34,738 nt of DNA from Alphaproteobacteria bacterium (GCA_028281075.1 JANQKO010000059.1:1-34738), one strand, 5' to 3'; shown: positions 6,976-27,362, counted from the stretch's first letter. A program made the numbers and translations. Notes: generated from the letters alone by a model not told the origin.

Positions 6976-7005
6976 AAAAAAAAGAGCCGCGCGTAAACGC
7001 GGCTC
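6976..7005 (-). terminator. Rho-independent terminator
   Basis: On the minus strand: GAGCCGCG-TTTACG-CGCGGCTC followed by TTTTTTTT. It lies ~190 nt downstream of the DUF1192 stop codon. Confidence 0.65.
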
Positions 7006-7195
7006 GAGTCAACAGGGAGGCGTCAACAGACTGGATGAGATCCAGCTGGGACAAGCTTGACTGGAATCAATCAAGCTGTAATGGAGACGTTAAGCCTGAA
7101 GTGTTAATGAAATCTTAAAATTCTTAACGAATTCAGATTTTTTCGTTTTTTCTTGTGGGCAGCTTATAGGCTTCGACGAGACAACCTGCGCGGAT

Positions 7196-7378: not shown

Positions 7379-7480
7379 CGATCGGCCTCCCTGCCTGTCC
7401 CGGGCCATTCGCCGGTTGCCTACCACAGCCGAACATACTAGACCGGACGCCATTATCGCCAGACTTCAGCCGGAAATGCC

Positions 7481-8482
7481 ATGACGACCCTGCCCGACGA
7501 GATGACCGCGATCGAGATCACCGAGCCCGGCGGTCCGGACGTACTGCGGCCCACGACGCGGCCATTGCCCGCCCATGGCGCCGGCGAGGTGTTGATCAAG
7601 GTCGATGCCGCCGGCGTCAACCGCCCCGACTGCATGCAGCGCGAAGGCGGCTACCCGCCGCCGCCGGGCGCGCCGGATATCCCCGGCCTGGAGATCGCCG
7701 GCACCGTCGCCGCCGCCGCGCCCGACGTCACCGGCCTGGCGGTCGGCGACCGGGTCTGCGCGCTGGTCGCCGGCGGCGGCTATGCCGAGTACTGCGTGGC
7801 GGCGGCCGACCTGTGCCTGCCGGTGCCGACGGGCCTGGACCCGACCGAGGCCGCGGCCCTGCCCGAGACCTTCTTCACGGTCTGGACGAACGTGTTTCAG
7901 CGCGGCCGCCTGCGGCCGGGCGAGACCATCCTGATCCACGGCGGCTCGAGCGGCATCGGCACGACGGCGATCCAGTTGGCGAAACAGTTCGGCGCCCGCG
8001 TCTTCGTCACCGCCGGCAGCGCCGAGAAGTGCCGGGCCTGCGAGGCGCTGGGCGCCGACCAAGCCATCAACTACCGCGAGGCGGATTTCGTGCCGGCCGT
8101 GGCGGAACTGACCGACGGCGCCGGCGTCGACCTGATCCTGGACATGGTCGGCGGCGACTACCTGCCCCGGAACGTCGAGGCGCTGGCCGTCGAGGGTCGG
8201 CTGGTGCAGATCGCCTTCCTGCGCAGCCCGAAGATGCAGTTCAATTTCCTGCCGATGATGCTGAAGCGGCTGACGCTGACCGGGTCGACGCTGCGGCCGC
8301 GCACGGTGGCGCAGAAGGCCGTCATCGCCGGGGAGCTGCGCGAGCGGGTCTGGCCGCTGCTGAACGACGGCAAGGTCAGGCCGGTGATGGATTCGACCTT
8401 TCCGCTGGCCGACGCGGCCGGCGCCCATGCCCGGATGGAAAGCAGCAGCCATATCGGCAAGATCGTGCTGGAGATTTCCTAG
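7481..8482 (+). CDS. qor: NAD(P)H:quinone oxidoreductase (zeta-crystallin/MDR family)
   Basis: 333-aa ORF. GVNRPD, Rossmann motif HGGSSGIGTTAIQLAK, C-terminal GKIVLE. A typical Qor/PIG3-type medium-chain reductase. Confidence 0.88.
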   Translation: MTTLPDEMTAIEITEPGGPDVLRPTTRPLPAHGAGEVLIKVDAAGVNRPDCMQREGGYPPPPGAPDIPGLEIAGTVAAAAPDVTGLAVGDRVCALVAGGGYAEYCVAAADLCLPVPTGLDPTEAAALPETFFTVWTNVFQRGRLRPGETILIHGGSSGIGTTAIQLAKQFGARVFVTAGSAEKCRACEALGADQAINYREADFVPAVAELTDGAGVDLILDMVGGDYLPRNVEALAVEGRLVQIAFLRSPKMQFNFLPMMLKRLTLTGSTLRPRTVAQKAVIAGELRERVWPLLNDGKVRPVMDSTFPLADAAGAHARMESSSHIGKIVLEIS

Positions 8483-11460: not shown

Positions 11461-11550
11461 CCGCTGGTCTCAATACCTTAACCAAGGCAGGCTAGATACG
11501 GACCGGACGATGGCCGGGGCGCCGACCGCCCCACCGCGCGGAGCCGAGGC

Positions 11551-12387
11551 ATGGACGGCGCGTATCTGGCGCATTACCGCGAGCACGGCTATGCCGTGGT
11601 CCGGGCCCTGTTCGCGCCCGACGAGGTGGCCGGGATCGCCGCCGCCTTCGACCGCCTCTACGCCCGGGGCCTGGCGCACGGCGCCAGTTTCCGGCACGGC
11701 AACCTGCTGTACCGGGTGCGGACCGACGCCGACCTCGGCCCGATCGTGCCCATGGTCCAGTGGCCGGCCTATATCGAGCCGGTGCTGGAGCGGACGCGGC
11801 GGGACCCGCGCCTGCTGGACCTGCTGGCGCCGCTGCTGGGCCGCGACCTGAAGCAGATCATCAACCAGTTGCACTGGAAGCCGCCCTGGGCCCGGGGCGT
11901 CGGCTTCTCCTATCACCAGGACGCGCTGTTCCGCCGGCCGGCGGAGGCCTATCGGGATCTCGCCGGCTCCTATGTCCAGACCGGCATCGCCATCGATCCG
12001 CACGGCCCCCGGAACGGCGGCATGCGGGTCTATCCCGGCAGCCACCGGCGGGGCATCCTGCGCATCGAGCGGCCGGGCCGGGTGACCGACCATGAGATGG
12101 CCGACGCCGACCTGGCGGCGCTGGGCCTGGACCCGGCGGGCGCCGTGGACCTGGAGCTGGCGCCGGGCGACATCGCGCTCTGGCATCCCTATACGGTGCA
12201 CGGCTCGGGCCCGAACCCGAGCGCCGGCGACCGCCGCTTCTTCATCAACGGCTATGTCCGGTCCGCGAACTGCGACCGCGGCGAATGGGCCTTCCGCGAC
12301 GGCGCGCCCTGCCCGCTCGGCGAACCGGTCCTGGTGCATTACGAGGACCTGCACATCAGGCCCGAACCGCACTATACCGGCGACTGA
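11551..12387 (+). CDS. Phytanoyl-CoA dioxygenase (PhyH) family Fe(II)/2-oxoglutarate dioxygenase
   Basis: 278-aa ORF. An HxD facial-triad candidate (YHQD), a distal His in TVHGSGPN, and RR downstream. Confidence 0.8.
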   Translation: MDGAYLAHYREHGYAVVRALFAPDEVAGIAAAFDRLYARGLAHGASFRHGNLLYRVRTDADLGPIVPMVQWPAYIEPVLERTRRDPRLLDLLAPLLGRDLKQIINQLHWKPPWARGVGFSYHQDALFRRPAEAYRDLAGSYVQTGIAIDPHGPRNGGMRVYPGSHRRGILRIERPGRVTDHEMADADLAALGLDPAGAVDLELAPGDIALWHPYTVHGSGPNPSAGDRRFFINGYVRSANCDRGEWAFRDGAPCPLGEPVLVHYEDLHIRPEPHYTGD

Positions 12388-12730
12388 CCCGACCCGGCCG
12401 GCGGCGCATTTTGCCGGGCCCGGCACCCGACTCCAATCGCGAATGACCGGATCTGGGGCAACTCGTCCCAGTCTGGCACAGGCGCATTTTGCGTCAATTC
12501 GGGACAAATTCACCATAAATCCGCGCGAACGCGGATCGGACAGCCATTCCAACGGCTTAGCCAAAAAATGTCACAGGTGCCTCATTTCGGCCACAAACTG
12601 GCCCGGGCTCTGCAAGGACCGGGGTGAGCCGCACCGGCGCCGACAACGGCCCGGGGCACGAACCGGGGACCAGGGGGTCTCGACCATGCCCGCCAACGCC
12701 CGGCGGGACCCGATCGAGAGGAGAGTTCAG

Positions 12731-13348
12731 ATGCTGTTCGGCCGTATCGTCAAAGCCACCGCCACCACCGTCGCCGCCGCCGGCCTGCTGTTGAGCGCGG
12801 CCGCCGTTCCGGCCCAGGCCGACGAGGCCGGCGCCACCGCGCATGTCGCCAAGCTGAGCGAGAACGCCGTGGCCCTGCTGACCGACCGGCAGATCGACGC
12901 CAACGACAAGGCCGCGGCGCTGCACAAGCTGTTCGTCGAGGGCTTCGACATCCGCACGCTGAGCCGGGCCGTGCTGGGCCGGCACTGGCGCAAGGCCGAC
13001 GACGCCCAGCGCGCCGCCTACGTCCAGGCCTTCGAGGCCTATGTGGTCAAGACCTATGTCCGCCGCCTGTCGCAGCTCGACGACGTCAGCGTCAAGATCA
13101 AGGGCGCCCGCGAGCTGAACGAGAAGGACAGCCTAGTCAGCACCCGCTTCGCCGGCCCGAACGGCCAGCCGCTGAACATCGACTGGCGGGTCCGGACCCG
13201 CGACGGCGAGGCCAAGATCATCGACGTGATCGTCGAGGGCGTGTCCATGGCCGTGACCCAGCGGGCCGAGTTCTCGGCGCTGATCCGCAGCCACGGCGGC
13301 AAGCTGGACATGCTGATCGCGGCGCTGGAGAAGAAGGCCGCGGCCTGA
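12731..13348 (+). CDS. mlaC: MlaC/Ttg2D family phospholipid-binding periplasmic protein
   Basis: ATG 12731 is preceded by GAGAGGAG. The signal peptide ends AVPAQA. The body matches the Ttg2D pattern (FDIRTLSRAVLGRHWRK...QRAAYVQAFEAYVVKTY...WRVR...KIIDVIVEGVSM). The 12092 start of the ORF track is rejected. Confidence 0.82.
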   Translation: MLFGRIVKATATTVAAAGLLLSAAAVPAQADEAGATAHVAKLSENAVALLTDRQIDANDKAAALHKLFVEGFDIRTLSRAVLGRHWRKADDAQRAAYVQAFEAYVVKTYVRRLSQLDDVSVKIKGARELNEKDSLVSTRFAGPNGQPLNIDWRVRTRDGEAKIIDVIVEGVSMAVTQRAEFSALIRSHGGKLDMLIAALEKKAAA

Positions 13349-13473
13349 GGCCCGGCCGGCCGGGAGACATCGACAGGTCCGCCGGGAGACGTCGCCACCG
13401 GGCAGTGCAATCGGGATCCCCCCATCCCAGCATTCGCCGCCCACATGAGCGCAGACGTCCCCGGCCCTGCCAC

Positions 13474-13518
13474 GGCGGCGCCCCTCCCCCAGGGCGCCGC
13501 CGTTTCTTTTTGGGTTTC
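13474..13518 (+). terminator. Rho-independent terminator downstream of mlaC
   Basis: GGCGGCGCCC-CTCCCCCA-GGGCGCCGCC followed by GTTTCTTTTTGGGTTTC. Confidence 0.7.
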
Positions 13519-13792
13519 ATGGTTCGAAGGACGCACGGGCGCCGGGATCGGCGGGCGGGATGACGTCGTCCGGCGCGGCGCTCCGGGCCGCTTGAGCGGG
13601 CCACCCCCAGGCGGCCACGCCGGACGTCGACGTCGCCGGCGATCCTGCCGGGCCGGTGTTTCCGGCGGATGTCCGCCGCCACGTGATTTGGTTTCAATTG
13701 TGTCGGCCGGCGGCCCCGCCGGCGTTCACGGCGAAATGGGGCGGCCGGCATGGTATGACGGTCGCGGGGGGCATATATGAGATTCCTGGCAG

Positions 13793-15424
13793 GTGGGCAT
13801 GCGGGGCCGAGAGGAACAAGACGACACCCGACAGGACAGCCGGCGCCCCGTGGGTGGGCCCGCCGGCGACCGCTACCGCATCGTCATCGAGCCGTTGACA
13901 GGGCGGGTGACGGCCAGGTTCGCGGGCACGACGCTGGCCGAGACCACGGACGCCAAGATCCTGCACGAGACGAACCTGCCGTCGGTGATCTTCGTGCCGC
14001 GCGGGGACGTGGCCATGGACCACCTGCGGCCCATCGACCTGCAGACCTTCTGCCCGTTCAAGGGCAACGCGACGCACTGGCGGCTGACGCTCGGCGGGCG
14101 CACGGTGACGCCGGCGGCCTGGAGCTATGAAACGCCCTTGAGCGAGGCCGACGGAATCGCCGGCCATATCGCCTTCTATCCGGCCGCCGTCGAGCAGTGG
14201 ACGCGGGACGGCGAAACCCTGCACGCGATGACGCCGCTGCGCACCGAGCGGCACCCGCTGACCGACTGGCTGCTGCTGTCGGCGGGCGCCGCCGCCTCGC
14301 CGGAAGCGCTGACCGAGCAGCTCGGCCAGCAGCTCGTCGCCGCGGGCGTGCCGCTGTGGCGGCTCTCGGTCGCGATCTGGACACTGCACCCGCAGCTCGC
14401 CGGCACCGGCTATACCTGGCGCGGCGACCGCGACGGCGTGGCGCAGATCTATACGCCGCACGGCGCGCTTGAGAGCCCGCAATACCTCAACAGCCCGGTC
14501 AAGTTCGTCACCGACGGCCTGGGCGGCGTGCGCCAGCGGCTCGATACCGGCGCGCCGCGCTATCCGTTCCCGGTGATGAACGACCTGAAGGCCGAGGGCG
14601 CGACCGACTATGTCGCCATGCCGCTGCCGTTCTCGGACGGCAGCATCCATTCCATGACGCTGACCTCGCGCGACCCGGACGGCTTCTCGACCGCCGACCT
14701 CGGCATGGTGTTCGAGAACTCCGTGGTGATCAGCCGGCTCTACGAGGTGCATACGCTCAGGGCCAACACGGCCGTGCTGCTGAACACCTATCTCGGCAAG
14801 CGCACGGGCGCGCGCGTGCGCGAGGGCCAGACCCGGCGCGGCGACGGCGAACGCTTGCGGGCGGTGATCTTCATGGCCGACCTGCGCGGCTCGACCGCGC
14901 TGGCCGAGCGGCTCAGCCGGGAGGACTATCTCGACGTGCTGAGCTGCTTCTTCGACTGCACGGCGACGCCGGTGACCGAGCGTGGCGGCGAGGTGCTGAA
15001 GCTGATCGGCGACGCGGTGCTGGCGATCTTCCCGCTGCCCGACGCGATCGACGCGACCGCGGCCGAGGCGGCGGCGGCCACGGTCTGCCGCCGGGCGCAC
15101 ACGGCCGCGCGCGACAGCCTGCGGCGGATCGAGACCGCGAACCGGACGGGCGGGCTCAAGGCCGAGATCCGCTGCGCCGTGGCGCTGCATCTGGGCGAGC
15201 TGACCTACGGCAATGTCGGCTCGCGGGACCGGCTCGATTTCACGATCGTGGGCACGGCGGTGAACGAGACCGCGCGCCTCGACGCGGTGGCGAAGAAGCT
15301 CGACGAACCGGCGGTCTATTCCGGCGACGTCGGCCGGCACCTGGGCGAGGCCGCCCGCTCCCTCGGCCACCATGCGCTGCCGGGCGTCGGCCGCGAGATC
15401 GAGATCTTCGTGCCGGTCGGGTAA
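13793..15424 (+). CDS. DUF427 domain / class III adenylate (guanylate) cyclase fusion protein
   Basis: The N-terminus has a DUF427-like pattern (RVTARFAGTTLAET...VIFVPRGDV...CPFKGNATHW...AWSYETP...IAFY). The C-terminus is a cyclase homology domain (VIFMADLRGSTAL...LKLIGDAVLAIF...LHLGELTYGNVGS...DFTIVGTAVNETARL). The start is uncertain (GTG 13793 or ATG 13799). Confidence 0.85.
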   Translation: MGMRGREEQDDTRQDSRRPVGGPAGDRYRIVIEPLTGRVTARFAGTTLAETTDAKILHETNLPSVIFVPRGDVAMDHLRPIDLQTFCPFKGNATHWRLTLGGRTVTPAAWSYETPLSEADGIAGHIAFYPAAVEQWTRDGETLHAMTPLRTERHPLTDWLLLSAGAAASPEALTEQLGQQLVAAGVPLWRLSVAIWTLHPQLAGTGYTWRGDRDGVAQIYTPHGALESPQYLNSPVKFVTDGLGGVRQRLDTGAPRYPFPVMNDLKAEGATDYVAMPLPFSDGSIHSMTLTSRDPDGFSTADLGMVFENSVVISRLYEVHTLRANTAVLLNTYLGKRTGARVREGQTRRGDGERLRAVIFMADLRGSTALAERLSREDYLDVLSCFFDCTATPVTERGGEVLKLIGDAVLAIFPLPDAIDATAAEAAAATVCRRAHTAARDSLRRIETANRTGGLKAEIRCAVALHLGELTYGNVGSRDRLDFTIVGTAVNETARLDAVAKKLDEPAVYSGDVGRHLGEAARSLGHHALPGVGREIEIFVPVG

Positions 15425-15444: not shown

Positions 15445-15550
15445 GGTTACCACAGAGGCACGGAGACACGGAGAACCAACTTGTTTTTTCGGCGCTTCGC
15501 GCCAACCAACTTTTTTGTTTGTTCTCGGTGTCTCCGTGCCTCTGTGGTTG
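15445..15550. repeat. Long palindromic intergenic element built from 8-nt units (family P8)
   Basis: The left arm is ACCACAGAGGCACGGAGACACGGAGAAC and the right arm is its near-perfect complement. The tip is GGCGC-TTC-GCGCC. It starts 21 nt after the cyclase stop. Confidence 0.85.
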
Positions 15551-16118: not shown

Positions 16119-16225
16119 GGGTTTTCACCACAAAGACACGAAGGCGCAAAGAACCAAAAAGGTTTGTTGGCGCAAAGCGCCGTAACAACCCGTTTGTTCT
16201 TCGTGTCTTTGCGCCTTTGTGGTGA
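16119..16225. repeat. P8-family palindromic element
   Basis: GGTTTTCACCACAAAGACACGAAGGCGCAAAGAAC ... GTTCTTCGTGTCTTTGCGCCTTTGTGGTGA. The tip is GGCGC-AAA-GCGCC. The two inner 8-mers are in swapped order in the two arms. Confidence 0.85.
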
Positions 16226-16332
16226 CATCTCGGATTTCGGAACGTCAACCACTTATGCCAAGTTGGCATTGGTAAGTCGATCCGAGAGCACTTGGCATCG
16301 AAATCAAAACGCGCCGATGGTAGGATGAGGCC

Positions 16333-16557
16333 ATGGCCACGACGACGTTGGAGAAGGCGATCGCCTCGCTGAAAGAGTTACCGGAAGAGCTGCAGGACGA
16401 GCTCGGCGGACAGCTTCTGTCGTACATCGACCAGTGGCGCGAACTGCAGATGTCGGTCGCCGAAGGCATCGCGCAGCTTCGCCGCGGCGAGGGCGTTGAG
16501 GTCCGGGACGGCGCGGCGCTGGTGCGCGAGATCAAGGCGAGGCATGGTCACACCTAG
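16333..16557 (+). CDS. Type II antitoxin (ParD-like / addiction-module component), partner of ParE
   Basis: 74-aa acidic ORF that overlaps the downstream ParE-family toxin gene by 14 nt. The family assignment rests only on context and weak resemblance. Confidence 0.65.
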   Translation: MATTTLEKAIASLKELPEELQDELGGQLLSYIDQWRELQMSVAEGIAQLRRGEGVEVRDGAALVREIKARHGHT

Positions 16558-16873
16558 ACGGGTCGTTCTCGCGCCGACGGCCATCGCCGACATCGACAAC
16601 ATCTACCTCTACATCGCCGAAAACGGCGACCCCAAAGCCGCCGAAGGTCAGATCGAGCGTTTGTGGAGCGCCTTCGAACGCCTCTGCACCTTCCCCGAAC
16701 ACGGGCGCAAGCGCGATCTGCTGGCACGGGGTCTCTACTCGCTGGTCGCCGGCAACTACGTGGTGTTCTATCTGCCGCACGACGACCGCATCGAAATCGT
16801 CCGCGTCATTCACGGTCGCCGCGACATCGAGCAGGAGATGGTCTCGTTCCTCAAACGGCACTTGCTGCGCTAA
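16544..16873 (+). CDS. parE: Type II toxin, RelE/ParE family
   Basis: VVLAPTAIADIDNIYLYIAENGDPKAAEGQIERL...FPEHGRKR...YVVFYLPHDDRIEIVRVIHGRRD, a typical ParE pattern. ATG 16544 overlaps the antitoxin 3' end. Confidence 0.85.
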   Translation: MVTPRRVVLAPTAIADIDNIYLYIAENGDPKAAEGQIERLWSAFERLCTFPEHGRKRDLLARGLYSLVAGNYVVFYLPHDDRIEIVRVIHGRRDIEQEMVSFLKRHLLR

Positions 16874-16952: not shown

Positions 16953-17040
16953 TCACCACCAAGGCACCAAGACACCACGATCACGCAGAACGTGAGCAAT
17001 GGTGCCGGCTGATCTTGGTGTCTTTGCGTCTTGGCGGTGA
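16953..17040. repeat. P8-family palindromic element
   Basis: TCACCACCAAGGCACCAAGACACCACGATC ... GATCTTGGTGTCTTTGCGTCTTGGCGGTGA. Confidence 0.8.
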
Positions 17041-17076
17041 ACCTATCTTGTTTTTGAAACGTGACGGGAGGTGGGG

Positions 17077-17964
17077 ATGGCAGACGTGATCAATATCGAG
17101 TTTACGCGGTTCTCGGCCTTTTACAGCCCGCTGATCGCGACCATCGCCGGCGGGTTCCTGGAAGACGAGGGGTTGAGCCCAAGGCACGCGGTGTCGGCGC
17201 CGGGGCGCACGGCCATCGACTCCCTGATCGACGGCACGGCGCACGTGGTGCAGTCGGCGCTGAGCCAGGGCTTCGGGCCGCTGGAGCGTGGGCAAACGCC
17301 GCCGGCGGTGCATTTCGCCCAGATCAACGAGCGCGACGGGTTCTTCCTCACGGCCTGCGCCCCCGACCCGGATTTCACATGGGCCAAGCTCGCTGGCAAG
17401 CGCGTCATAATCGACCACGGCGCCCAGCCGCTCGCCATGTTCAGATACGCCTGCCACAAGCAGGGCCTGGATTTCGGGAGCATCACGGCCGTCGACGCCG
17501 GCGGCACGGCTGAGATGATCGCGGCCTTCCGCGCGGGCGACGGCGACTACGTCCACCTGCAAGGCCCCGCCCCGCAACAGCTCGAGCACGACAACGCCGG
17601 CCACGTCGTCGCGTCCGTCGGCGAAGCTATCGGCCCTGTCGCCTTCTCCAGCCTCGCCGCCACCCGCGAGTGGCTCCAGACCGACATGGCCGCCGCCTTC
17701 ATGCGCGCCTACCGCAAGGCCCGCGCCTGGCTGATCGAAACGCCGGCCGCCGAGGTCGCCCGCGCCGAAGCCGACTTCTTCCCCGACATCGACAGGCAAG
17801 TCCTCACCGCCAACCTCGCCTTCTACCAAACCCTCGGCTGCTGGTCCCCCCACGTCGAGATCACGCCGGAGGCCTACGAAGTCACGGTCGACGTGTTCAT
17901 GCACGCCGGCCTGATCACGCAACGGCACCCCTATGAGGCGATTGTGGCGACGCCGCCAGGGTAG
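17077..17964 (+). CDS. NMT1/THI5-like (ABC substrate-binding-protein-like) protein, no obvious signal peptide
   Basis: ~295-aa ORF. ATG 17077 follows GGGAGGTGGGG. It has a periplasmic-binding-protein-like N-terminus (FTRFSAFYSPLIATIAGGFLEDEGL). No transporter partners are adjacent. The product call is weak. Confidence 0.55.
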   Translation: MADVINIEFTRFSAFYSPLIATIAGGFLEDEGLSPRHAVSAPGRTAIDSLIDGTAHVVQSALSQGFGPLERGQTPPAVHFAQINERDGFFLTACAPDPDFTWAKLAGKRVIIDHGAQPLAMFRYACHKQGLDFGSITAVDAGGTAEMIAAFRAGDGDYVHLQGPAPQQLEHDNAGHVVASVGEAIGPVAFSSLAATREWLQTDMAAAFMRAYRKARAWLIETPAAEVARAEADFFPDIDRQVLTANLAFYQTLGCWSPHVEITPEAYEVTVDVFMHAGLITQRHPYEAIVATPPG

Positions 17965-18335
17965 GTCGAACATGCTCAATTCGAAGCTTTAGAGACCCAA
18001 GCAACCTAAGTGTTTGAATCCTCTCACCCAACGCTTAGATGTCTTTGTCGGTTGGAACTAGTTGGCCGAATGGCCATTTGACCGCCCACCACGCTTGCAG
18101 CGTCCGACCAAAAATCACTAAGGGTCTCGGCTAGGAATTGATATGCTATCTTCCGACTTTAGACTAGCTGTAATAGCGACGGCAGTAACGATGCTATGCT
18201 ACGTTGGCTACCTCAATTCGGACCTTTAATCATGATCCGCATCCGGAAATCCTCGATGCCGATATAAACAGCAAAAACGATTTTCGTTACTAAATCAACT
18301 TAGACAACATAGTAGGGTACTACACTTGAATATTC

Positions 18336-21300
18336 ATGCCACCCACTGACGAACATTCGATCTACATCCCTCGCCGCTTGACGAGAATTGACGATGATGG
18401 AAACATCCAGGAAATAAAAGAGTCTGAACTGTCAAGTCGAAGCTTGCCAATCGTGGTATTGGGCGAACCAGGCATGGGCAAAACTCGTTTGCTCGAACAG
18501 CTCGCCAATGACCAGAAAAATTGGCGCTTCATACGCGCTGGCACCATTGTACGAAACCCTCAGAAAGCCTGGTCCCCAAATCCTAAGCAAATTCTGGTGA
18601 TTGACGCTCTTGATGAAGTAGCGGCTCTCCAAGAGGGGGATCCGCTACACAATGTTCTGAAAGCACTTGGCGAGATTAACTATCCGAACTTCGTCATGTC
18701 CTGCCGTTCAGCGGACTGGCGCAGCGCAATAGCCAAATTCGATATTGCTGAAGACTACTCTAATGCACCAGAGGAATGGATTCTAGAACCCATCACGAGA
18801 GATGAAGCTCTAGACTTCCTGCTCGGTCAACAAGTGCGAAGAGAGATTGCCGACGAGCTGGTTCTCCAACTCGAAGCCAGAAATCTTTTTGAATTGTTCC
18901 GTAATCCACTCACGTTAAGCCTGCTGGCAAATGTGGTCAAGACACCGAACTACACACTTCCAAAAACGAAGGCAGATTTATTTGCGCAGGCTACTGATTT
19001 TCTGCGGCTAGAGATGAATAACAGACACGCTGATAAAGAATTTGCCCAAATGGCAAAAGAGCAGGCTTTGGATGCGGCAGGAGCGGCTATGGCCGGATTG
19101 CTGCTTACAGGCAAAGACAATATTTCGATCGGCCAAAACTCAAGTGAAAACAGCAATAATCTGCCTATCTCAGAAGTGACAACTCTTCCGAATGGTGAAT
19201 ATGCAAAAGCCCTTCTACACAGCCGACTCTTTCGGATTGGAGAATTCCATGAGCGTGGGTTTGTTCCCCTCCATCGCACGGTCGCTGAATATTTGGGCGC
19301 GCGGTGGTTGGCGAGGCGGATAAGGGGCAACAGGCAAGCGACGGCACGTTTTTTTGCGTTGATCACAGCCGATGGACTTGTCCCCGCCTCTCTGCGAGGT
19401 CTGCATGCTTGGTTGGCGCATTGGAGTCCTGAGCTTGCAAGAATAGTAATAGAAAATGATCCGTACGGATTGTTGCGCTACGGCGACGCCGATGGTCTTG
19501 ACGTAGTGCAAGGCAGAGAATTGCTAGCAGCGTTGCAGCGCTTGGAGGAAGAGCAACCATACTTTCGTGCCGGGGACTGGGCTCACTACTCTGCAAAAGG
19601 ACTGATGCACGAAGAACTGGTCGATGTAATGCGTGCCGTCATCACCAGTAGTGGCACCGGCTATCAATTGCGTACTCTTCTGCTCGAAGCCCTCAAAGAT
19701 ACTTCGATGGCGGATAAGCTTGGCTCCGAACTTGAAGCGATGATTAGAAATTCAACGCTCGACACCGGTGAGCGCTTGGACGCAGGGTTGGCTCTAGCTG
19801 GTGCCAGCGACTACGCGATCAATTGGCCTCAACTCATTGACGATTTGCGCGAAGAAGAGAATGAGGATTCACCGCATTTAGCAATCGGATTGATACTAGA
19901 GATCGGAATAGAGAAATTCTCCGATTGGTCAATTGCGAAGACGGTGCTTGCCGCAGTGGGACTTCTAGGATCGAGCAGCAGAAGGCGAGGCAGTGCGTAT
20001 TTCGGCAGCCTCCATAGTCTCGCACAAGCGATTCCAGATGATCGCACAGCAACAATGCTCGATTGCCTTGCTGACGAAGTCGCAGCACAACGATCCAGCA
20101 AAGACTCAGATCGGGAGAGTTGGGAAATTCAGTTCGAGATCGGTGGCTTTTCTCGGAAGCTAATAGCTCGACAACTCGAGCACGGCATTGATGATCCCCT
20201 GCGCCTCTGGCGATGGCTCGAAGCTCTCGAGGATAAAAACGGCTACGATGATGAAACTCGCAAGAAAATTGCGAAGTTCCTAAAAACTAACTCCAATGCG
20301 CGGGTTGCCATTCAGAGTCATTTCTTGTTTTCGACCGCATCAGAGCACTGGCGACTCGGCAGTCTCTATACCGCGAATCAGATATCGTCGGGTCTGATAC
20401 TCCAACCAGAAGACATTATCTTTCATCTACAGCAAATTGCTGAACGCAACGATAGAAGCGATCGTTACCGCGAGGTTTGGCGCACGCTGGTAGCTGTATC
20501 CCGGGGCGTAAACGGTATTCCTGACGACGTACGCGCTGTCGCCACGCCTTATGCATTGGGTGACGACGAACTTACCAATTTCCTCGATCCCAAACCGTCA
20601 CCTAGCGATCTGGATCGGCAAAACCGAGAGAAGATGTGGGAAGCACAGCGCAAGCGACAAGAAAAGGATAAGAAACGGCTATGGGATAAACACCGCACAG
20701 ATTTCGCGGCCCACAAGAATGAAATGCGATCCGGCGAGCTTGGCTGGATCGCGTCGCCAGCCAAAGTATATTTCGGTCTATTCAGCGACGTCGACACCGA
20801 GAAGGATCCACCTGATCGCATTAGAGATTGGCTAGGTCCAGAACTTCAGCAAACGGCATTGGCGGGGTTCGAGGCGACGCTTTTCCGCGACGATATTCCA
20901 ACACCAGAACAAGTAGCCAACAGCTATGCGGTTGGTAAGTACTGGAACTACATACATCCAATTTTGGCTGGTCTCGTCGAACGCTGGCGAAATGGTCGCG
21001 ATTTTAGCAATGTACCGATCGATGTGATCATGACTGGACGGCTCGGGGCCAGCAGTGAACTAATTGAACAACATGCCAAGCTTGAGGGATTTGAAGACGC
21101 ACTTGAAGCTCTACTCAGAACCGATCAAGCAATATTTGAGAGGTTTTTGAGGACTTGGTTAGAGCCGCATCTCTCGGTCGAACATCAACATGTCATGGGT
21201 CTCTACAAGTTTGCTCGTGATGTCAGCTATCGCCCTCTTTCTACCAAGCTTGCGGCGGAATGGCTTGGGAGATTTCCGAATCTTCCATTTCAGACAGAAA

Positions 21301-22427
21301 GCGAATTGATCTATTGCCTTGCAACAGCACCTGTTTCCGAGCGCAATTCGGCTTGGAGTGAGCTAATGGTCCTGGCGGAAAAACGTCGCCAAGTTGGCTT
21401 TCAGTCTGATGAGCACGGATACTTGTGGCAGTCTGTGTGCTTTCTCGTCGATTTTGAGAGTAACGGCAACTGGCTGAGATCCGGCGGAGACCTAAAGCCC
21501 GAGTTCATTTGGAGCATCCGCTCAATCCTCAACTATCAGCGTCATATTGTAGGCGACCCTCTCCCCATATCATCGAAACAATTAGCGTGGATCGTTCGGG
21601 TATTCAGGAGGATTTGGCCTCGAACCGATCGTCCCGGCGGCGTTACCTCAGGCGATGTCAATCCTTGGGACGCGGTGGAGTTTATTGATTGGGCTATTTC
21701 ACAGCTTGCAAGTAAGACATCCGATAATGCAATGGAACAACTTACCGCTCTACTCAATGCGCCGAAGGACAGCTACACGACCCGTCTAAAGGATGCTGTT
21801 GCCAATCAACGCCGCTCGCGCATGGAAGCGTCATTCGGGTCTATCAGTCTGACCGACTTTGCCGCCGCGCTGAGGAATGACACTCCGCGCTCAGCCGATG
21901 AGGTACAGGTAATAGTACTTGACGAAATTGCCCAGTTGCAGAAAGAGCTTCGTGGAAATGCCACGAATACTGTCGAGCATTTTTATGACCATAACGGTAG
22001 ACCAAAAACAGAAAATGAATGCCGCAACTTGTTGCTGGACCTGCTGAGACGACTCCCGTTTGGCATTCAAACGTCGCCTGAAGAAGCGATGCCTGGAGGG
22101 ACTCGGGCTGATGCCGGCTTTCGGCTCGACAACATAAAGGTTCCATTGGAAACCAAGGGCCAATGGCACCGAAATGTCTGGGAGGCTGCCAATTCACAAC
22201 TTGGCCAGCTTTATTCCATTGACCATCAAGCGCACGGTCGGGGCATCTATGTCGTGTTTTGGTTTGGTCGCGACGCACCACCCGGCAAAAGACTTAGGCG
22301 CCCTCCAGACAACAGGGATTCACCCCAAACGTCCGAGCAGATGAAAACGATGCTGGAACGGCGAATTCAACCGGCGCTGCGTGGTTCCATTGCCGTGTTT
22401 GTGCTCGACCTAAGTAAATCAAATTAG
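18336..22427 (+). CDS. Giant STAND/NACHT-type P-loop NTPase with C-terminal PD-(D/E)xK-like nuclease module
   Basis: 1363 aa. Walker A GEPGMGKT (aa 43-50, nt 18462-18485). Walker B ILVIDALDE (aa 86-94). NACHT-like NFVMSCRS and FRNPLTLSLL motifs. A long helical middle. C-terminus: ENECRNLLLDLL...TRADAGF(x12)LETKG (D1259 at nt 22110; E1272/K1274 at nt 22149-22157). Confidence 0.8.
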   Translation: MPPTDEHSIYIPRRLTRIDDDGNIQEIKESELSSRSLPIVVLGEPGMGKTRLLEQLANDQKNWRFIRAGTIVRNPQKAWSPNPKQILVIDALDEVAALQEGDPLHNVLKALGEINYPNFVMSCRSADWRSAIAKFDIAEDYSNAPEEWILEPITRDEALDFLLGQQVRREIADELVLQLEARNLFELFRNPLTLSLLANVVKTPNYTLPKTKADLFAQATDFLRLEMNNRHADKEFAQMAKEQALDAAGAAMAGLLLTGKDNISIGQNSSENSNNLPISEVTTLPNGEYAKALLHSRLFRIGEFHERGFVPLHRTVAEYLGARWLARRIRGNRQATARFFALITADGLVPASLRGLHAWLAHWSPELARIVIENDPYGLLRYGDADGLDVVQGRELLAALQRLEEEQPYFRAGDWAHYSAKGLMHEELVDVMRAVITSSGTGYQLRTLLLEALKDTSMADKLGSELEAMIRNSTLDTGERLDAGLALAGASDYAINWPQLIDDLREEENEDSPHLAIGLILEIGIEKFSDWSIAKTVLAAVGLLGSSSRRRGSAYFGSLHSLAQAIPDDRTATMLDCLADEVAAQRSSKDSDRESWEIQFEIGGFSRKLIARQLEHGIDDPLRLWRWLEALEDKNGYDDETRKKIAKFLKTNSNARVAIQSHFLFSTASEHWRLGSLYTANQISSGLILQPEDIIFHLQQIAERNDRSDRYREVWRTLVAVSRGVNGIPDDVRAVATPYALGDDELTNFLDPKPSPSDLDRQNREKMWEAQRKRQEKDKKRLWDKHRTDFAAHKNEMRSGELGWIASPAKVYFGLFSDVDTEKDPPDRIRDWLGPELQQTALAGFEATLFRDDIPTPEQVANSYAVGKYWNYIHPILAGLVERWRNGRDFSNVPIDVIMTGRLGASSELIEQHAKLEGFEDALEALLRTDQAIFERFLRTWLEPHLSVEHQHVMGLYKFARDVSYRPLSTKLAAEWLGRFPNLPFQTESELIYCLATAPVSERNSAWSELMVLAEKRRQVGFQSDEHGYLWQSVCFLVDFESNGNWLRSGGDLKPEFIWSIRSILNYQRHIVGDPLPISSKQLAWIVRVFRRIWPRTDRPGGVTSGDVNPWDAVEFIDWAISQLASKTSDNAMEQLTALLNAPKDSYTTRLKDAVANQRRSRMEASFGSISLTDFAAALRNDTPRSADEVQVIVLDEIAQLQKELRGNATNTVEHFYDHNGRPKTENECRNLLLDLLRRLPFGIQTSPEEAMPGGTRADAGFRLDNIKVPLETKGQWHRNVWEAANSQLGQLYSIDHQAHGRGIYVVFWFGRDAPPGKRLRRPPDNRDSPQTSEQMKTMLERRIQPALRGSIAVFVLDLSKSN

Positions 22428-22438
22428 GGAAGTTAGAG

Positions 22439-23740
22439 TTGGCAGCGGCTACGACCGAATCGAACCGCTCCGACGGCCGCCTGGAACGCCAACTCAAGAG
22501 TACGATTCTAGAAAGGCTCGAAAACTTCGATTGCGTCGCCCTTCTTGGACCTCGCCAAGTAGGCAAAACCATACTCGCTAGAGAGATTATCTCGAACCAT
22601 TCCAACTCAATTTATTTGGACCTTCAAAGTCCGAAGGACCTTGAAACACTAGGCAACGGAGAACAGTTGTTCACCGATAACCAACATGCCCTCATTGTGT
22701 TGGATGAAGTCCAATGCCGGCCTGACCTCTTTCCAATCTTGCAAAGCCAGATAGATTCTCGCCGAGATCGATTAGGAGACGATCGCGGACGTTTCTTGAT
22801 ACTGGGGTCGGCCAGCTTAGATCTGCGGCGTGCTGCCTCCAAAAGTCTTACTGGGCGTATGAGTGAAGTTCTTTTGCCAGGCTTTCAACTCGTCGAAGTA
22901 AGTCAGATGAATCATGCGACATTTGGCGCTATTCCAACTGATCCCACCGAATACGAGCAACAAACGGCTAGTAACCCGACCGCTCCGCCTCTGGATCAAG
23001 ATAATGTCAACCGACTTTGGCTAAGGGGCGGTTTTCCGTTGAGCTACTTGGCGAAAAACGATCAATCGAGCCTGCAATGGAGGCGGGATTTCATTCAAGC
23101 CTACATTGAACGCGATATTGCAGACCTCGGGCTTACCGTACACCCACCAACACTTGGCCGTTGCTGGGGATTACTTGCTTCGCGCCAAGGCTCAATTTGG
23201 AACAAAGGAAAATTCTCCAATGCCCTTGGAGTGAAGATCACGCAAATAGACGAATGTATTTATGCCCTTGAAAAGCTCTTATTCATTCGTGCGTTACCGT
23301 CATGGCATGGTGATGTTAGAAGGCAGTTAATCAGAGCTCCAAAATATTATGTCTGTGACTCGGGACTGCTTCATTCCCTATTGAACATCAGAACCATAGA
23401 TGAGCTTGTCGAGCAGGAAGTTGCAGGTCACAGCTGGGAAGGGTTTGTAATTGAGACGCTCATTAACGCAGCACCAAGAGCACAAGCCGCTTTCTTCTAT
23501 CGCGACCAATATGGTTCGGAAGTCGATCTAGTGCTGGAATTCTCTATAAACAATCGTTGGGCGATTGAGGTAAAATTCAGCGGTGATCCAGATGTCACAA
23601 AAGGATGTCTCACGGCAGCTGATGTTATGAAAGCTAGCCGAAGACTAGTGGTCCACACAGGACCGGAGAGTTTCACAATGAATAATGGCTTTGAAGCCAT
23701 GACATTAATTGATGCTTGTGCCGCCGCAGCTGCTGCATAG
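22439..23740 (+). CDS. AAA+ ATPase with DUF4143 domain (COG1373-like; AAA_14 + DUF4143)
   Basis: 433 aa with a TTG start 11 nt after the upstream stop. Walker A GPRQVGKT (aa 37-44), Walker B LIVLDEVQ, GSAS, LRGGFP, PKYYVCDSGL, and a terminal restriction-endonuclease-like SEVDLVLE...WAIEVKFS. Confidence 0.85.
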   Translation: MAAATTESNRSDGRLERQLKSTILERLENFDCVALLGPRQVGKTILAREIISNHSNSIYLDLQSPKDLETLGNGEQLFTDNQHALIVLDEVQCRPDLFPILQSQIDSRRDRLGDDRGRFLILGSASLDLRRAASKSLTGRMSEVLLPGFQLVEVSQMNHATFGAIPTDPTEYEQQTASNPTAPPLDQDNVNRLWLRGGFPLSYLAKNDQSSLQWRRDFIQAYIERDIADLGLTVHPPTLGRCWGLLASRQGSIWNKGKFSNALGVKITQIDECIYALEKLLFIRALPSWHGDVRRQLIRAPKYYVCDSGLLHSLLNIRTIDELVEQEVAGHSWEGFVIETLINAAPRAQAAFFYRDQYGSEVDLVLEFSINNRWAIEVKFSGDPDVTKGCLTAADVMKASRRLVVHTGPESFTMNNGFEAMTLIDACAAAAAA

Positions 23741-23894
23741 ACGATCGACCTGTGGTCGCAGCGTCGAAGCGAGTCTCACGTAGCTCGACTACGAAAATTA
23801 TACAACAGACCGCCGAACGCATAAGTACACGATCATCATTCTGTCCAAGCGCCCGTCAAAATCTGAAATTGCTCTCAAATTGGGCAGGCAGACT

Positions 23895-24505
23895 TCAGTA
23901 TCCTGTCTGCCATAAACTGCCGAACGGCTCCAACCGCAACCACGCTACCGTCTCCCGCAAAAACGTCGGGATGTCGTGTAGCGGCACGTTGAGGCTGTTG
24001 CGGCGGGTGAAGTCGAAGCCGGTTGCGGGTGCGAGTGCGAGTGGCTCGGTGAGCGGGGCGGGCATCTTCATGTCGGGGAGGATCTTTTTGAGCTCGGCGT
24101 AGATGTCCTGCCAGTGCCAGCTATCGTAGACACCATAGTAGCGGCCGGACGCGGCCTCGTTTTCGTAGGCCGCCAGGAACAGCGCGGCGAGGTCGTGGAG
24201 GTGGATCATCGACGTGGAATCGTTGGGGATCTTCTCGTGCCTCGGCGGGCCGCCGGCGATGAGGGACCGCAGCCATTTGTGCGGGTTGTGCTCCAAATGC
24301 CCTGGCAGGATGACGGGGCCGAACAGGCCGGTCGGCAATAGAATGCAGAGACGCATGTCGTGCTCGGCGGCAAACGCGATGGCAGCCTTTTCCATCACGG
24401 TCTTGGTGGCGGATGTGTATTTCTTGGCCCGGCACTGCTCGCCTTCGTCGGACCAGTGGTCGACCTCGTTCTTGACCGGCACGGGCGGCACCGGATTGGT
24501 GCTGC
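23895..24505 (-). pseudogene. 5'-truncated copy of the NAD-dependent epimerase/dehydratase gene at 25682-26686
   Basis: 23958-24505 aligns without gaps to 25721-26268, with roughly 30 substitutions by eye. Protein-level similarity continues to the stop (ETVAWLRLEPF vs ETIEWLRSAPF). Homology breaks at 24505/24506 within the STNPVPP codons. No Rossmann N-terminus is present. Confidence 0.85.
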
Positions 24506-24537
24506 ATATACAGATCAACGTTTGGCCCCACTTCCCA

Positions 24538-25026
24538 TTACGTATTCGACATAACAAACCTCATTACCTTTACCAAGTCTATACAAATATAAACCAATGA
24601 TTTTGGATTTGGTGGGTATGATTCTGATCTTATTCCACTCTCGATTCTTCCAGATTCGCCACTCCACAATATGAAATATCTCGAAAAATTTCCCGATAAA
24701 ACTACCTCCTCAATATTACTTCTATTATTAAATATACTCACAAAAATTTTATTCGCAAATTCTGATGCTTGTTTTGGCCTCATTCCAAATCTTGATAACT
24801 CACTCAATATCATTATTTCGACAATGTCGAGTTTTGAATACAACCTTTTCTTCCCAGATTTGATCTTTTTGTCGGCACGTTGAAGCAAGCCTCTGTTTAC
24901 CCAGTGCTGAAATTGTCCCGGAGGAAGCCCACATACCCGGCAAACGTCAGCCTGAACATATTGCTTTTTCAACATATTGAATGACGAACCTCTGCTACTT
25001 TTAGGAGAAAATCTTCTCGTAGACAT
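24538..25026 (-). CDS. MerR/excisionase-like helix-turn-helix protein (hypothetical)
   Basis: 162-aa ORF at ~33% GC. VCRVCGLPPGQFQHWVNRGLL...GKKRLYSKLDIVEIMILSELSRFGMRPKQA resembles a MerR-type HTH plus wing. The alternative start MLKKQY (codon 18) would place the HTH at the canonical N-terminal position. Confidence 0.6.
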   Translation of the reverse strand: MSTRRFSPKSSRGSSFNMLKKQYVQADVCRVCGLPPGQFQHWVNRGLLQRADKKIKSGKKRLYSKLDIVEIMILSELSRFGMRPKQASEFANKIFVSIFNNRSNIEEVVLSGNFSRYFILWSGESGRIESGIRSESYPPNPKSLVYICIDLVKVMRFVMSNT

Positions 25027-25071
25027 CTTTTTTTAGCCGTTCCTCAATACCCCAAACGTGCCAAAAATTAG

Positions 25072-25087
25072 AATACCAACTGGTATT
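25072..25087. promoter_or_regulatory. Palindromic operator-like site upstream of the HTH gene
   Basis: AATACCA-AC-TGGTATT, perfect 7-bp inverted arms, ~50 nt upstream of the 25026 start in an AT-rich spacer. Confidence 0.3.
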
Positions 25088-25381
25088 TTACTTACTCGCG
25101 ATGCTCATCGCCAACGCAGTTTTTGTGCCCAAAAAAGAAGGTTTTGGTGGGTTATTCGATCACTTTTTCGTGATAGCCGCGAACTCAAAAAGGCAATTGG
25201 CTCCAATCAGGTTCACTATCCATCTTATAAGGCGTTGTTTTATCGTAAGAATTTTCAAGTAGGGGGTCAGCCACAATCTGTCACCGATGCTGACCGCGCC
25301 GTTCTATAGGTACTGCAACCGAACAGCAGCAGTTGCGGAGGTGGCAGCACCGTTTTGAAAACAAACCAGTAGGTTGAATCA

Positions 25382-25534
25382 ATGTCAAAACGGCCCCCTA
25401 AAATCCGTGTCAGGTTTCCGTTCGGAAACGGGACCAACATCACAATCGAGATTAGCGGAACTGTGGCAGTCATTACAGCGATTGCCGTTCCAACTTCATT
25501 AGCATTCCTCGGGCGCCTTTTTGGACTCTGGTAG
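25382..25534 (+). CDS. Possible 50-aa small membrane protein (hypothetical, unsupported by homology)
   Basis: MSKRPPKIRVRFPFGNGTNITIEISGTVAVITAIAVPTSLAFLGRLFGLW has a basic N-terminus and one hydrophobic C-terminal segment. The SD is weak. It is shorter than the ORF-track cutoff. Confidence 0.2.
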   Translation: MSKRPPKIRVRFPFGNGTNITIEISGTVAVITAIAVPTSLAFLGRLFGLW

Positions 25535-25681
25535 CCGTCAAAATCAGGACTGGCTTCACAAGTTAACTGGGGTGTCTCCAGATCAAACTCCGCAGTTCAA
25601 ATGCGGGATTATAGTAGTAATCGGCGCTTTGCATCGGCGACAACGACTGCTGGATCGCTAGAAGACAGACATTCCGTGCCC

Positions 25682-26686
25682 TCAGAACGGTGCGGAGCGG
25701 AGCCATTCGATGGTTTCGCGCAAAAACGTCGGGATGTCGCGTAGCGGCACGTTGAGGCTGTTGCGGCGGGTGAAGTCGAAGCCGGTTGCGGGTGCGAGTG
25801 CGAGTGGCTCAATGAGCGGGGCGGGCATCTTCATGTCGGGGAGGATCTTTTTGAGCTCGGCGTAGATGTCCTGCCAGTGCCAGCTATCGTAGACGCCGTA
25901 GTAGCGGCCGGACGCGGCCTCGTTTTCGTAAGCCGCCATGAATAGCGCGGCGAGGTCGTGGAGGTGGATCATCGAGGTCGAGTCGTTGGGGATCTTCTCA
26001 TGCCTCGGCGGGCCGCCGGCGATGAGGGCGCGCAGCCATTTGTGCGGGTTGTGCTCCAGGTGGCCCGGCAGGATGACGGGGCCGAACATGCCGGTCGGCA
26101 GCAGAATGCAGAGGCGCATGCCGTGCTCGGCGGCAAACGCGATGGCGGCCTTTTCCATCACGGTCTTGGTGGCGGATGTGTATTTCTTGGCGCGGCACTG
26201 CTCGGCTTCGTCGGACCAGTGGTCGACCTCGTTCTTGATCGGCACCGGCGGCACCGGGTTGGTGCTGCTGGTGCTGCTGCAGATGATGGCGGTCTTGACG
26301 CCCTGGCGGGCGGCGGCGCGCAGGATGTTGAGGCAGCCGTTGACGGTCGGCATGATGATCTCGGCATAGCCTTGCTCGTCGTCCATCTCGCGGGCGGGCT
26401 TGCCTGACGGGCCGGCATAGACCGGGATGAGGCTGGCGATGAAGACGGCGTCGGTGTTGGCGAGCGGTTCGTCGAAGTCGGCTTCGTGGGCCATGTCGGC
26501 GCTGTGGAGCGTCAGCCGTTCGGCGGCGCCGGGGAGCGCCATGAGGTAGGGCGCCTTGTCCGGCGCCTTCGCGTCGCGCAGCGTACCGCGCACCGTGTAG
26601 CCGCGATCGAGCGCCGCCTTGACGATGTTCGAGCCGACAAGGCCGCTGGCGCCGACGATGCAGAGGGATTTGTCCGCGAGCCTCAT
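25682..26686 (-). CDS. NAD-dependent epimerase/dehydratase family (extended SDR, aldehyde/flavonol-reductase-like)
   Basis: 334 aa. N-terminal Rossmann motif IVGASGLVGSNIV. Active-site region KKYTSATKTVMEKAA. High GC. Confidence 0.88.
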   Translation of the reverse strand: MRLADKSLCIVGASGLVGSNIVKAALDRGYTVRGTLRDAKAPDKAPYLMALPGAAERLTLHSADMAHEADFDEPLANTDAVFIASLIPVYAGPSGKPAREMDDEQGYAEIIMPTVNGCLNILRAAARQGVKTAIICSSTSSTNPVPPVPIKNEVDHWSDEAEQCRAKKYTSATKTVMEKAAIAFAAEHGMRLCILLPTGMFGPVILPGHLEHNPHKWLRALIAGGPPRHEKIPNDSTSMIHLHDLAALFMAAYENEAASGRYYGVYDSWHWQDIYAELKKILPDMKMPAPLIEPLALAPATGFDFTRRNSLNVPLRDIPTFLRETIEWLRSAPF

Positions 26687-26710: not shown

Positions 26711-27362
26711 GGCCGGCAGAGAAGGGAGGTTTCACCACAAAGACGCGAAGACGCAAAGAACCAAAAAGACGTTGGCTGGCGCGGGCCGGTATGCCGACGT
26801 GTGGGATGTCGGCACGAACACGGCGTCGCGGGACCTGAGTCTTAGACGTGAATGGGATCGACCACAGAGGCACGGAGGACACGGAGAAAAGTTGGTTGGC
26901 GCGAAGCGCCGGAAGAAAGCGCATTCTCTCTGTGTCCTCCGTGCCTCCGTGGTGGAAACCCCTTCGCTCTCACCGCGTCGCGGCGGAACGGATCAATGGG
27001 ATGGACTGCCCATGTTCTGCATCCGTCGGGTCGGCCGGAAAGAGAGGTTTCACCGCCAAGGCGCCAAGACACCAAGTCGGCATGTCGAATTGCGCCGGTA
27101 TGCCGACGTGTGGGATGTCCGCGCGAAAACGGCGTCGCGGGACCTGAGTCCTAGACCGGAATGGGATCGACCACAGAGGCACGGAGGACACAGAGAATAC
27201 ACATGTTTTTCCGGCGCTTCGCGCCAACCAACTTTTCTCCGTGTCCTCCATGCCTCTGTGGTGAAAACCCCGTCGTCCTCACCGCGCCGCGGTGAAACGG
27301 ATTAACGAGGACTGTCCTCATGTCGTCGGTCAACAGCAGAGACGCGGAGGGCACGGAGAAGG
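26711..27362. repeat. 322-bp tandem duplication (x2) of a composite of P8 half-element, GCCGAC hairpin and a full P8 palindrome, plus a partial third arm
   Basis: Unit 1 starts at GGCCGG 26711 and unit 2 at GGCCGG 27033. The modules are collinear (GGTTTCACC..., GGTATGCCGACGTGTGGGATGTC, GGCGTCGCGGGACCTGAGTC, GAATGGGATCGACCACAGAGGCACGGAGGACAC...). Confidence 0.85.

Follow-up and report, generated by a model that had tools for sequence, protein, structure and literature searches.

In the Avs1-5 antiphage proteins, N-terminal effectors are placed ahead of the NTPase and the sensor. Erebus (EruA) and Hypnos, two systems built on NACHT-domain antiphage proteins, reportedly go back to van den Berg et al. 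in 2024. Here we compare with these systems a two-gene cassette at positions 18336-23740 of a 34,738-nucleotide (nt) stretch of DNA from Alphaproteobacteria bacterium (GCA_028281075.1, JANQKO010000059.1:1-34738; this whole stretch is referred to as the window), in which a gene encoding a large NACHT/STAND NTPase (gene 1) is followed by one encoding an AAA_14 and DUF4143 ATPase (gene 2). Lee et al. grouped Erebus, Hypnos, and bNACHT64 as Avs10, and reported that the phage major capsid protein prompts Avs10 proteins to kill the cell, the sensor binding one copy of the capsid protein at the penton- and hexon-forming face of its HK97-fold A-domain (Nature 2026, PMC13581612). According to the same study, effector mutations abolish killing in every Avs family tested, and the effector domains of Avs7 lie at the N-terminus. 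Drawing on that paper and on general knowledge, the logic common to Avs1-5/AVAST and the bNACHT proteins can be described as a STAND NTPase switch combined with a repeat-containing or helical sensor of phage proteins and a fused effector, often a nuclease, and gene 1 would follow this logic.

Taken separately, neither gene of the cassette is new. Gene 1 (18336-22427, + strand, ATG start, 1363 aa) scores 1203.4 bits against the equivalog model NF058535, “NACHT domain-containing antiphage protein EruA” (cut-off 1000), in NCBIfam release 20, which was searched with both genes. Its residues 13-1360 align to positions 1-1318 of the 1318 in the model, and this profile match places it at equivalog level within the published Erebus family (EruA), the capsid-sensing antiphage protein of Avs10. 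It resembles Erebus EruA in its size of ~1350 aa, its N-terminal NACHT-type NTPase, and its family-wide C-terminal motif set. The trigger, oligomerization, and effector activity of gene 1 are predicted by analogy with Avs10. Gene 2 (22439-23740, + strand, TTG start, 433 aa) matches no NCBIfam model and matches the PADLOC PDC-S01 model PDLC04790 at 1.1e-78 (residues 15-422 to positions 12-413 of 422); on this match it is an AAA_14 plus DUF4143 ATPase of the catalogued candidate family PDC-S01. PDC-S01 is a “guilt-by-embedding” candidate and the fourth commonest defense call in prokaryotes (PMC12988326), and gene 2 has the same architecture of an ATPase and a PD-(D/E)xK domain that is described there. 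However, PDC-S01 was set up as a candidate of one gene, which usually occurs solo, whereas gene 2 begins 11 nt after eruA and falls in a sub-clade that occurs exclusively downstream of EruA.

The new point is the combination of the two. Erebus is catalogued, as far as could be established, with a single named component, whereas the window and about a third of the family loci add a DUF4143 ATPase-nuclease, and the text of PMC13581612 makes no mention of an adjacent ATPase gene. A conserved two-gene form of EruA and a DUF4143 ATPase, with dedicated partner clades and a lineage in which the partner's ATPase is dead, is not described in the literature searched, which did not include the original Erebus paper; nor does a name for a second Erebus gene (“EruB”) appear in that literature. 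An earlier note on this DNA, made from the sequence alone, had presented the cassette as a candidate undescribed defense system. This does not hold for either gene, since the annotation tools assign each of them separately to a named system; the pair is not assigned by these tools. We consider the cassette to be, on balance, probably a two-gene form of the Erebus (EruA/Avs10) antiphage system, in which gene 1 would be a self-contained sensor and gene 2 an add-on working with EruA.

Linkage and Co-inheritance of EruA and its Partner

A query with the single protein found no related genome loci, and a query with an alignment of homologs succeeded. Among more than 566 EruA loci in GTDB representatives, we selected 80 from different GTDB species and scanned them with gene 2. 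A gene-2 homolog directly adjoins EruA on the same strand in 25 of the 80 loci (about a third), downstream of it in 22 and upstream in 7. Five loci (L003-L007) have a homolog on both sides of EruA (at about 6720-7990 and 12047-13370), and two (L013 and L069) have one upstream only. The gap between EruA and its partner is 0-21 nt in nearly all linked loci, or the two genes overlap. When ~16 kb of flanking sequence per EruA locus was searched with a profile, a single extra match appeared, weak and non-adjacent, and no other conserved EruA neighbor was found among the 80 loci. Ordinary clustering in defense islands was considered as the whole explanation for gene-2 homologs near EruA and was rejected, because all but that one weak match are directly adjacent and on the same strand, and because the downstream partners fall into exclusive clades.

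In the window, both open reading frames (ORFs) lie where the earlier note had placed them, on the same strand and 11 nt apart. The junction (22428-22438, + strand) runs from the TAG stop codon of gene 1 (22425-22427) through a Shine-Dalgarno-like GGGAAG (22428-22433) and TTAGAG to the TTG start codon at 22439, which suggests operonic, and possibly coupled, translation. The same pair is present on a metagenome contig from the Joint Genome Institute (JGI; L161), with a partner 58% identical to gene 2, and in the complete genome of Methyloceanibacter sp. wino2 (CP028960.1, 1217254-1234567, L249), where EruA and the partner overlap by 4 nt. It is also carried by the conjugative plasmid p2 of Paracoccus sediminicola (NZ_CP115770.1, L247 4986-10216), on which the partner is annotated “DUF4143 domain-containing protein”. 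The Methyloceanibacter genome and the Paracoccus plasmid thus offer defined sequences of the pair for cloning. As to their surroundings, other large genes of defense-like type are found beside the pair in two cases: a 1333-aa HTH_3 protein is encoded upstream of the pair on the JGI contig (L161 1-1444, + strand), and the Methyloceanibacter pair stands beside a divergent gene for a 1193-aa SIR2_2 protein (L249 1-3378, - strand). The pair on p2, which is a MOBP/MPF_T plasmid, adjoins the coupling protein and relaxase genes.

It could be argued that gene 2 is a selfish or mobility-associated gene that inserted beside eruA and is passively carried, given that many genomes hold several copies of COG1373-type ATPases, that this very abundant family has spread widely by transfer, and that some EruA loci have two copies, one on each side. 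However, no terminal repeats, transposase, or integrase were found around gene 2, the precise orientation and junction are conserved over deep divergence, and the motifs of the protein are under purifying selection. We regard this explanation as very improbable.

In the partner tree, the downstream partners form two clades that contain EruA-linked genes only, one holding gene 2 of the window (tentatively referred to as “dnA”) and a more divergent one (“dnB”). All dnA partners belong to members of a single EruA clade, in which 12 of the 17 members have a partner, and dnB partners are spread over three EruA sub-clades. The trees of EruA and of the partner are congruent, with identical sister pairs in both, and the EruA and partner distance matrices are correlated with a Mantel r of 0.93 in dnA and 0.95 in dnB (p = 1e-4, permutation), a correlation that reflects the co-inheritance of linked genes and not functional coupling. 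The dnA clade covers Alpha-, Beta-, and Gammaproteobacteria, so that the pair has moved together between classes. Gene 1 and gene 2 thus behave as one inherited unit, as judged from the conserved same-strand adjacency, the dedicated partner clades, and the congruent trees; the earlier note had argued for one horizontally acquired functional unit from the tight spacing, the shared foreign composition, and the NTPase and nuclease folds of both proteins.

The two clades differ in what they have kept of the partner protein. The dnA genes, like the upstream and solo genes, retain the GK[TS] of Walker A, the DE of Walker B, and the nuclease motif. In contrast, all dnB partners that have an ATPase domain (L014-L016, L018 from Roseobacter sp. 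S98, L020 from Brevundimonas sp. R86498, L023-L025, L027-L029, and L057; partner genes at about 11890-13260) carry a K-to-R replacement in Walker A (LPRVGR[ST]) and a replacement of the Walker B E by H, A, or M, and in these same proteins the E-x-D...E-x-K nuclease motif is intact. In two further members of dnB (L070 and L075), the whole ATPase domain has been lost and K379 is replaced by G. This pattern fits a dedicated partner rather than a free-living gene. Only an EruA-linked lineage shows this decay, which offers the strongest indication that partner function there may rest on EruA instead of the ATPase switch of the partner itself.

Predicted Switch, Sensor, and Nuclease Modules

The EruA family retrieved with gene 1 comprises more than 956 proteins at E<1e-10, nearly all of ~1350 aa and aligning end to end. 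The N-terminal part of gene 1 (about residues 33-200; 18432-18935, + strand) is predicted to be a NACHT/STAND P-loop NTPase core. Pfam nSTAND3 matches it at 28.9 bits (cut-off 27.2), and NACHT (just under its cut-off), AAA_16, and AAA_22 match below threshold. A profile search of the Protein Data Bank (PDB) sequences returned generic P-loop matches only. The motifs that the earlier note had quoted for this gene, GEPGMGKT, ILVIDALDE, NFVMSCRS, and FRNPLTLSLL, are all present, the first being Walker A (K49) and the second Walker B (D90/D93/E94). G46, G48, K49, D90, D93, and E94 are invariant in a 26-sequence alignment and in ~80 genome homologs, which bears out the reading of gene 1 as a STAND/NACHT NTPase. 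Since Walker A occupies residues 43-50, there is no room for an N-terminal effector. With the NTPase at the extreme N-terminus and the predicted nuclease at the C-terminus, the domain order differs from that of Avs families such as Avs7 and Avs1-5, with an N-terminal effector, a central STAND NTPase, and a C-terminal sensor.

HyoA of Hypnos, a related NACHT antiphage protein, was also considered as an assignment for gene 1 and was rejected, as its model NF058534 gives a partial match only (residues 147-799) at 137 bits, far from the cut-off of 1200. No convincing model for gene 1 was found in PADLOC v2 (2023).

The central region of gene 1, ~985 aa long (18936-21890, + strand), is conserved over its full length in the family. 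It is probably mostly helical, and the part that was modeled (residues 1000-1185) is predicted to be so. We presume that this region is the sensor, by analogy with the characterized Avs10 proteins, in which the sensor binds the capsid protein.

For the last ~180 residues (about 1186-1363; 21891-22424, + strand), the earlier note had pointed to a conserved PD-(D/E)xK-like module, and our results point the same way. Residues E1226, D1259, E1272, K1274, Q1276, and W1277 are invariant in the 26-sequence alignment and are kept in the ~80 homologs with or without a partner, so that D1259, E1272, and K1274, which the note had singled out together with K49 for mutation, are as strictly conserved as the Walker A lysine. 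We modeled residues 1000-1363 with AlphaFold2 from an alignment of 19 fragments and obtained a mean predicted local distance difference test (pLDDT) of 81.7. In this model, a helical stretch is followed by a helix-strand-strand-strand-helix-strand unit, in which the helix carries E1226, one of the strands D1259, and the following strand E1272-x-K1274; this is the canonical residue placement and core topology of PD-(D/E)xK enzymes.

When the model was compared with the PDB by Foldseek, the top match was McrC (7vsr_M) at E = 5e-3, and none reached E<=1e-3. About three quarters of the top 50 weak matches are PD-(D/E)xK enzymes, including McrC, Cdn1, Card1/Can2, SfsA, Hjc, Bax1, PspGI, and Nt.BspD6I, as well as Kpn2I, HincII, DdmD, the R2 endonuclease, and the cap-snatching endonucleases of bunyaviruses and arenaviruses. 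No nuclease family was detected when the 19 C-terminal fragments were scanned with Pfam at E<=1, and PDB sequence searches found no nuclease match for this region. When the EruA C-terminus and the gene-2 family were compared profile to profile, their nuclease modules showed no relationship. Based on the conserved residues and the predicted topology, the C-terminus of gene 1 is likely a PD-(D/E)xK nuclease.

Gene 2 likewise conforms to its earlier description as an AAA_14 plus DUF4143 ATPase, with Pfam matches to AAA_14 (6e-21, 75 bits, cut-off 27) and to DUF4143 (1e-35, 123 bits, cut-off 28.1); a profile search of PDB sequences gave AAA+ matches only. Its ATPase domain (22532-22900, + strand) has both Walker A (GPRQVGKT, K43) and Walker B (LIVLDEVQ, D89/E90) intact, and these motifs, as well as the EVDLV...IEVK toward the C-terminus, are present as the earlier note had quoted them. 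The DUF4143 region (Pfam residues 224-380; 23108-23578, + strand) consists of a winged-helix-like part followed by a PD-(D/E)xK-type core, in agreement with the classification of DUF4143 as PD-(D/E)XK (Steczkiewicz et al., 2012, PMC3424549).

The PD-(D/E)xK-type residues E361, D363, and E377-x-K379 of gene 2 are invariant in a 26-sequence alignment. K43, the other lysine that the earlier note had selected for mutation, is nearly invariant in that alignment, and is replaced by R in dnB. K43, E361, D363, E377, and K379 are all kept in dnA, in the upstream copies, and in nearly all solo homologs. The AlphaFold2 model of gene 2 (pLDDT 85.8; predicted template modeling score, pTM, 0.85) shows an AAA+ fold and has a strand-strand-strand-helix-strand core at residues 350-406. 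Its top structural matches are the archaeal AAA+ ATPases 2qen and 2fna, Orc1/Cdc6, and RuvB, and remoter matches include Apaf-1 and Avs5.

Possible Roles of the Second Gene

The mechanism that we propose for the cassette assigns three parts to EruA: the NACHT/STAND NTPase at the N-terminus would be the switch, the following ~1000 aa the sensor, and the PD-(D/E)xK-type module at the C-terminus a nuclease. If EruA acts as the characterized Avs10 proteins do, a tailed phage would be recognized on infection by its HK97-fold major capsid protein, around which the sensor would wrap. Oligomerization driven by the NTPase would follow and switch on the nuclease, which would destroy DNA, so that the infection would be halted and the cell probably killed. 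The capsid trigger, the nuclease activity, and the abortive outcome are all carried over to this cassette from the characterized Avs10 proteins and the predicted domains. The protein of gene 2, produced from the same operon, would act as an add-on module, most likely as a second nuclease arm or a co-sensor, and would broaden or strengthen the response; this supposes that the two proteins are coupled functionally or physically.

Gene 2 is unlikely to be essential to the core of the system, as it is missing beside most EruA genes and as the catalytic residues of EruA are kept regardless of the partner. Within the proposed mechanism, a second nuclease arm or a co-sensor is favored over a brake because the nuclease motif is the most strictly kept feature of the partner. 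More specifically, and more tentatively, the DUF4143 ATPase-nuclease may be a genuine working partner of Erebus/Avs10, for example a second nuclease that is recruited or switched on by activated EruA. The dnB lineage fits a recruited second nuclease, as there the ATPase switch of the partner has decayed while its nuclease motif is intact.

In another reading, gene 2 would be a safeguard or regulator of EruA (for example a brake, chaperone, or antitoxin-like protein) that silences the EruA nuclease until infection and has no effector function of its own. Such a role would suit the seemingly coupled translation with the 3' end of eruA, the co-inheritance of partner and EruA, and the fact that AAA+ and Orc/Cdc6-like folds are often found in assembly or remodeling factors. 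However, most EruA proteins have the same catalytic motifs and no partner, so a brake is not generally needed, and the strict retention of the nuclease motif, even where the ATPase has decayed, argues for a catalytic role rather than a purely regulatory one. We therefore consider a regulatory gene 2 improbable.

Several results weigh against the cassette being a two-gene form of Erebus in which gene 2 works with EruA. EruA has no partner in 55 of the 80 loci. Conversely, we took 80 loci of other gene-2 relatives (32-42% identity) and found EruA within 6 kb of none of them. Three gene-2 homologs that are as much as 44-46% identical to gene 2 stand alone, and among 86 solo genes of the family ~65 are without any tight same-strand neighbor. 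The upstream partner copies fall, together with solo genes, into a clade of their own, the third, and the matrix correlation, as said, speaks to inheritance. As 55 of the 80 loci have neither this partner nor any other conserved neighbor, and as no name for a second Erebus gene turned up in the literature searched, EruA probably works alone.

There are also points against the individual components of the mechanism. Gene 1 is only 30-43% identical to most of its genome homologs, so it may respond to another trigger than the Avs10 proteins that were tested. The C-terminal nuclease fold of EruA is without a statistically significant structural or sequence match. Finally, the PDC-S01 family is unvalidated (PMC12988326), and the one representative tested conferred no protection on E. 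coli B against T7, T5, or T4 (bioRxiv 10.1101/2024.09.26.614923).

Much of this evidence would be expected under the main rival explanation, namely that EruA and a PDC-S01-type ATPase-nuclease are two independent single-gene systems that were co-transferred as a compact defense islet. Besides the 55 loci with EruA alone, the solo state of the PDC-S01 gene in all 80 other loci, and the scarcity of tight neighbors around solo genes, it would account for the clustering of upstream copies with solo genes and for the presence, in the window, of intact NTPase and nuclease modules in both proteins. On the other hand, it does not readily explain why gene order, strand, and the spacing of 0-21 nt (or overlap) are conserved over Alpha-, Beta-, and Gammaproteobacteria, or why two partner clades are exclusively linked to EruA. 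The dnB lineage, with its decayed ATPase and retained nuclease motif, is difficult to reconcile with an autonomous system driven by ATP. We consider two independent systems rather unlikely, though less so than the other alternatives, and retain the two-gene form of Erebus as our preferred reading.

The pairing has implications for both families. PDC-S01/COG1373 ATPase-nucleases are very common and have no demonstrated function, so a sub-lineage locked to a sensor of known trigger would be an experimental handle on them. The pairing also suggests that some Avs-type sensors may not be strictly single-protein systems. If gene 2 is a working partner of EruA, this would be the first functional setting for COG1373/PDC-S01, which is among the most abundant unvalidated candidates in bacteria and archaea, and an example of a STAND sensor that controls a separately encoded effector.

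Insertion Site and Neighboring Elements

The cassette is part of a low-GC block at roughly 17965-25681, which extends beyond both genes and also comprises a 663-nt epimerase gene fragment and an ORF for a MerR/excisionase-like protein. The earlier note had described a low-GC cassette of ~45% GC; the contrast with the flanks is real, and the figure is too low. The GC content of the cassette is 50.4% (51.0% in gene 1 and 48.7% in gene 2), that of the flanks 68.5 and 67.4%, and 45% applies to the non-coding leader upstream of the cassette (17965-18335, + strand). The GC content at third codon positions (GC3) is 0.51 in gene 1 and 0.46 in gene 2, versus 0.90 in the adjacent host gene. Scans for promoters and terminators over 17900-24000 showed no excess compared with shuffled sequence, and a promoter-like site at 18138-18165 is no better than chance expectation. 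There are no tRNA genes in the whole window, and no integrase was seen in the low-GC block.

The nearest genome to the window is an alphaproteobacterial metagenome-assembled genome (L167), in which the flanks are 85-94% identical at the nucleotide level and the flanking genes are the same, with an NMT1-like gene on the left and a gene for an NAD-dependent epimerase on the right. At the same site (10895-15119), L167 has a different low-GC island of 4.2 kb in place of 17965-25681 of the window, encoding a Haem_oxygenas_2 protein, an Nmad2 protein, a protein with both HTH and Peptidase_M78 domains (RmrA/CapP-like by PADLOC), a PDC-S70 protein, and one protein of an unknown family. The low-GC block is, judging from its composition and from the different cargo at the L167 site, horizontally acquired, as the earlier note had proposed, and the cassette in particular is recognized as foreign DNA by its 50% GC against 68% in the flanks and by the other low-GC cargo of L167. 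By comparison of the two genomes, the site between the NMT1-like and epimerase genes is a variable hotspot that collects defense-type cargo, which lends independent support to the predicted defense role of the cassette.

On the right side of the block, there are two copies of the 3' part of the epimerase gene (23895-24557 and 25682-26686, - strand), which are 94% identical over 556 nt without gaps. They are ~1.1 kb apart, and the spacer, of 37-48% GC, encodes the MerR/HTH_17 (excisionase-like) protein (24538-25026, - strand). Downstream, the fragment has kept 30 nt of native sequence, which are missing from the full copy. This arrangement looks like that of a small integrated element which brought its own replacement 3' end.

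To the left of the block, a toxin-antitoxin cassette (16245-16873) lies between hairpins resembling repetitive extragenic palindromic (REP) elements. The ORF at 16496-16873 is assigned as the toxin by its match to Pfam ParE_toxin (1.4e-19), and the antitoxin is putative. As the toxin-antitoxin cassette is absent from L167, it appears to be a separate small insertion. Intergenic palindromes of ~100 nt, similar to REP elements or to miniature inverted-repeat transposable elements (MITEs) and of the form ACCACAGAGGCACGGAG ... CTCCGTGCCTCTGTGGT, recur on either side of the island, at 15449-15548, 16125-16225, 16953-17041, 26726-26764, 26858-26956, 27050-27076, and 27170-27262, and are also found in L167. 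Farther away, in a local GC dip at 6977-7125 (- strand), the window matches the Rfam family RF02356, the alphaproteobacterial small RNA BjrC1505, at 54.3 bits (gathering score 50).

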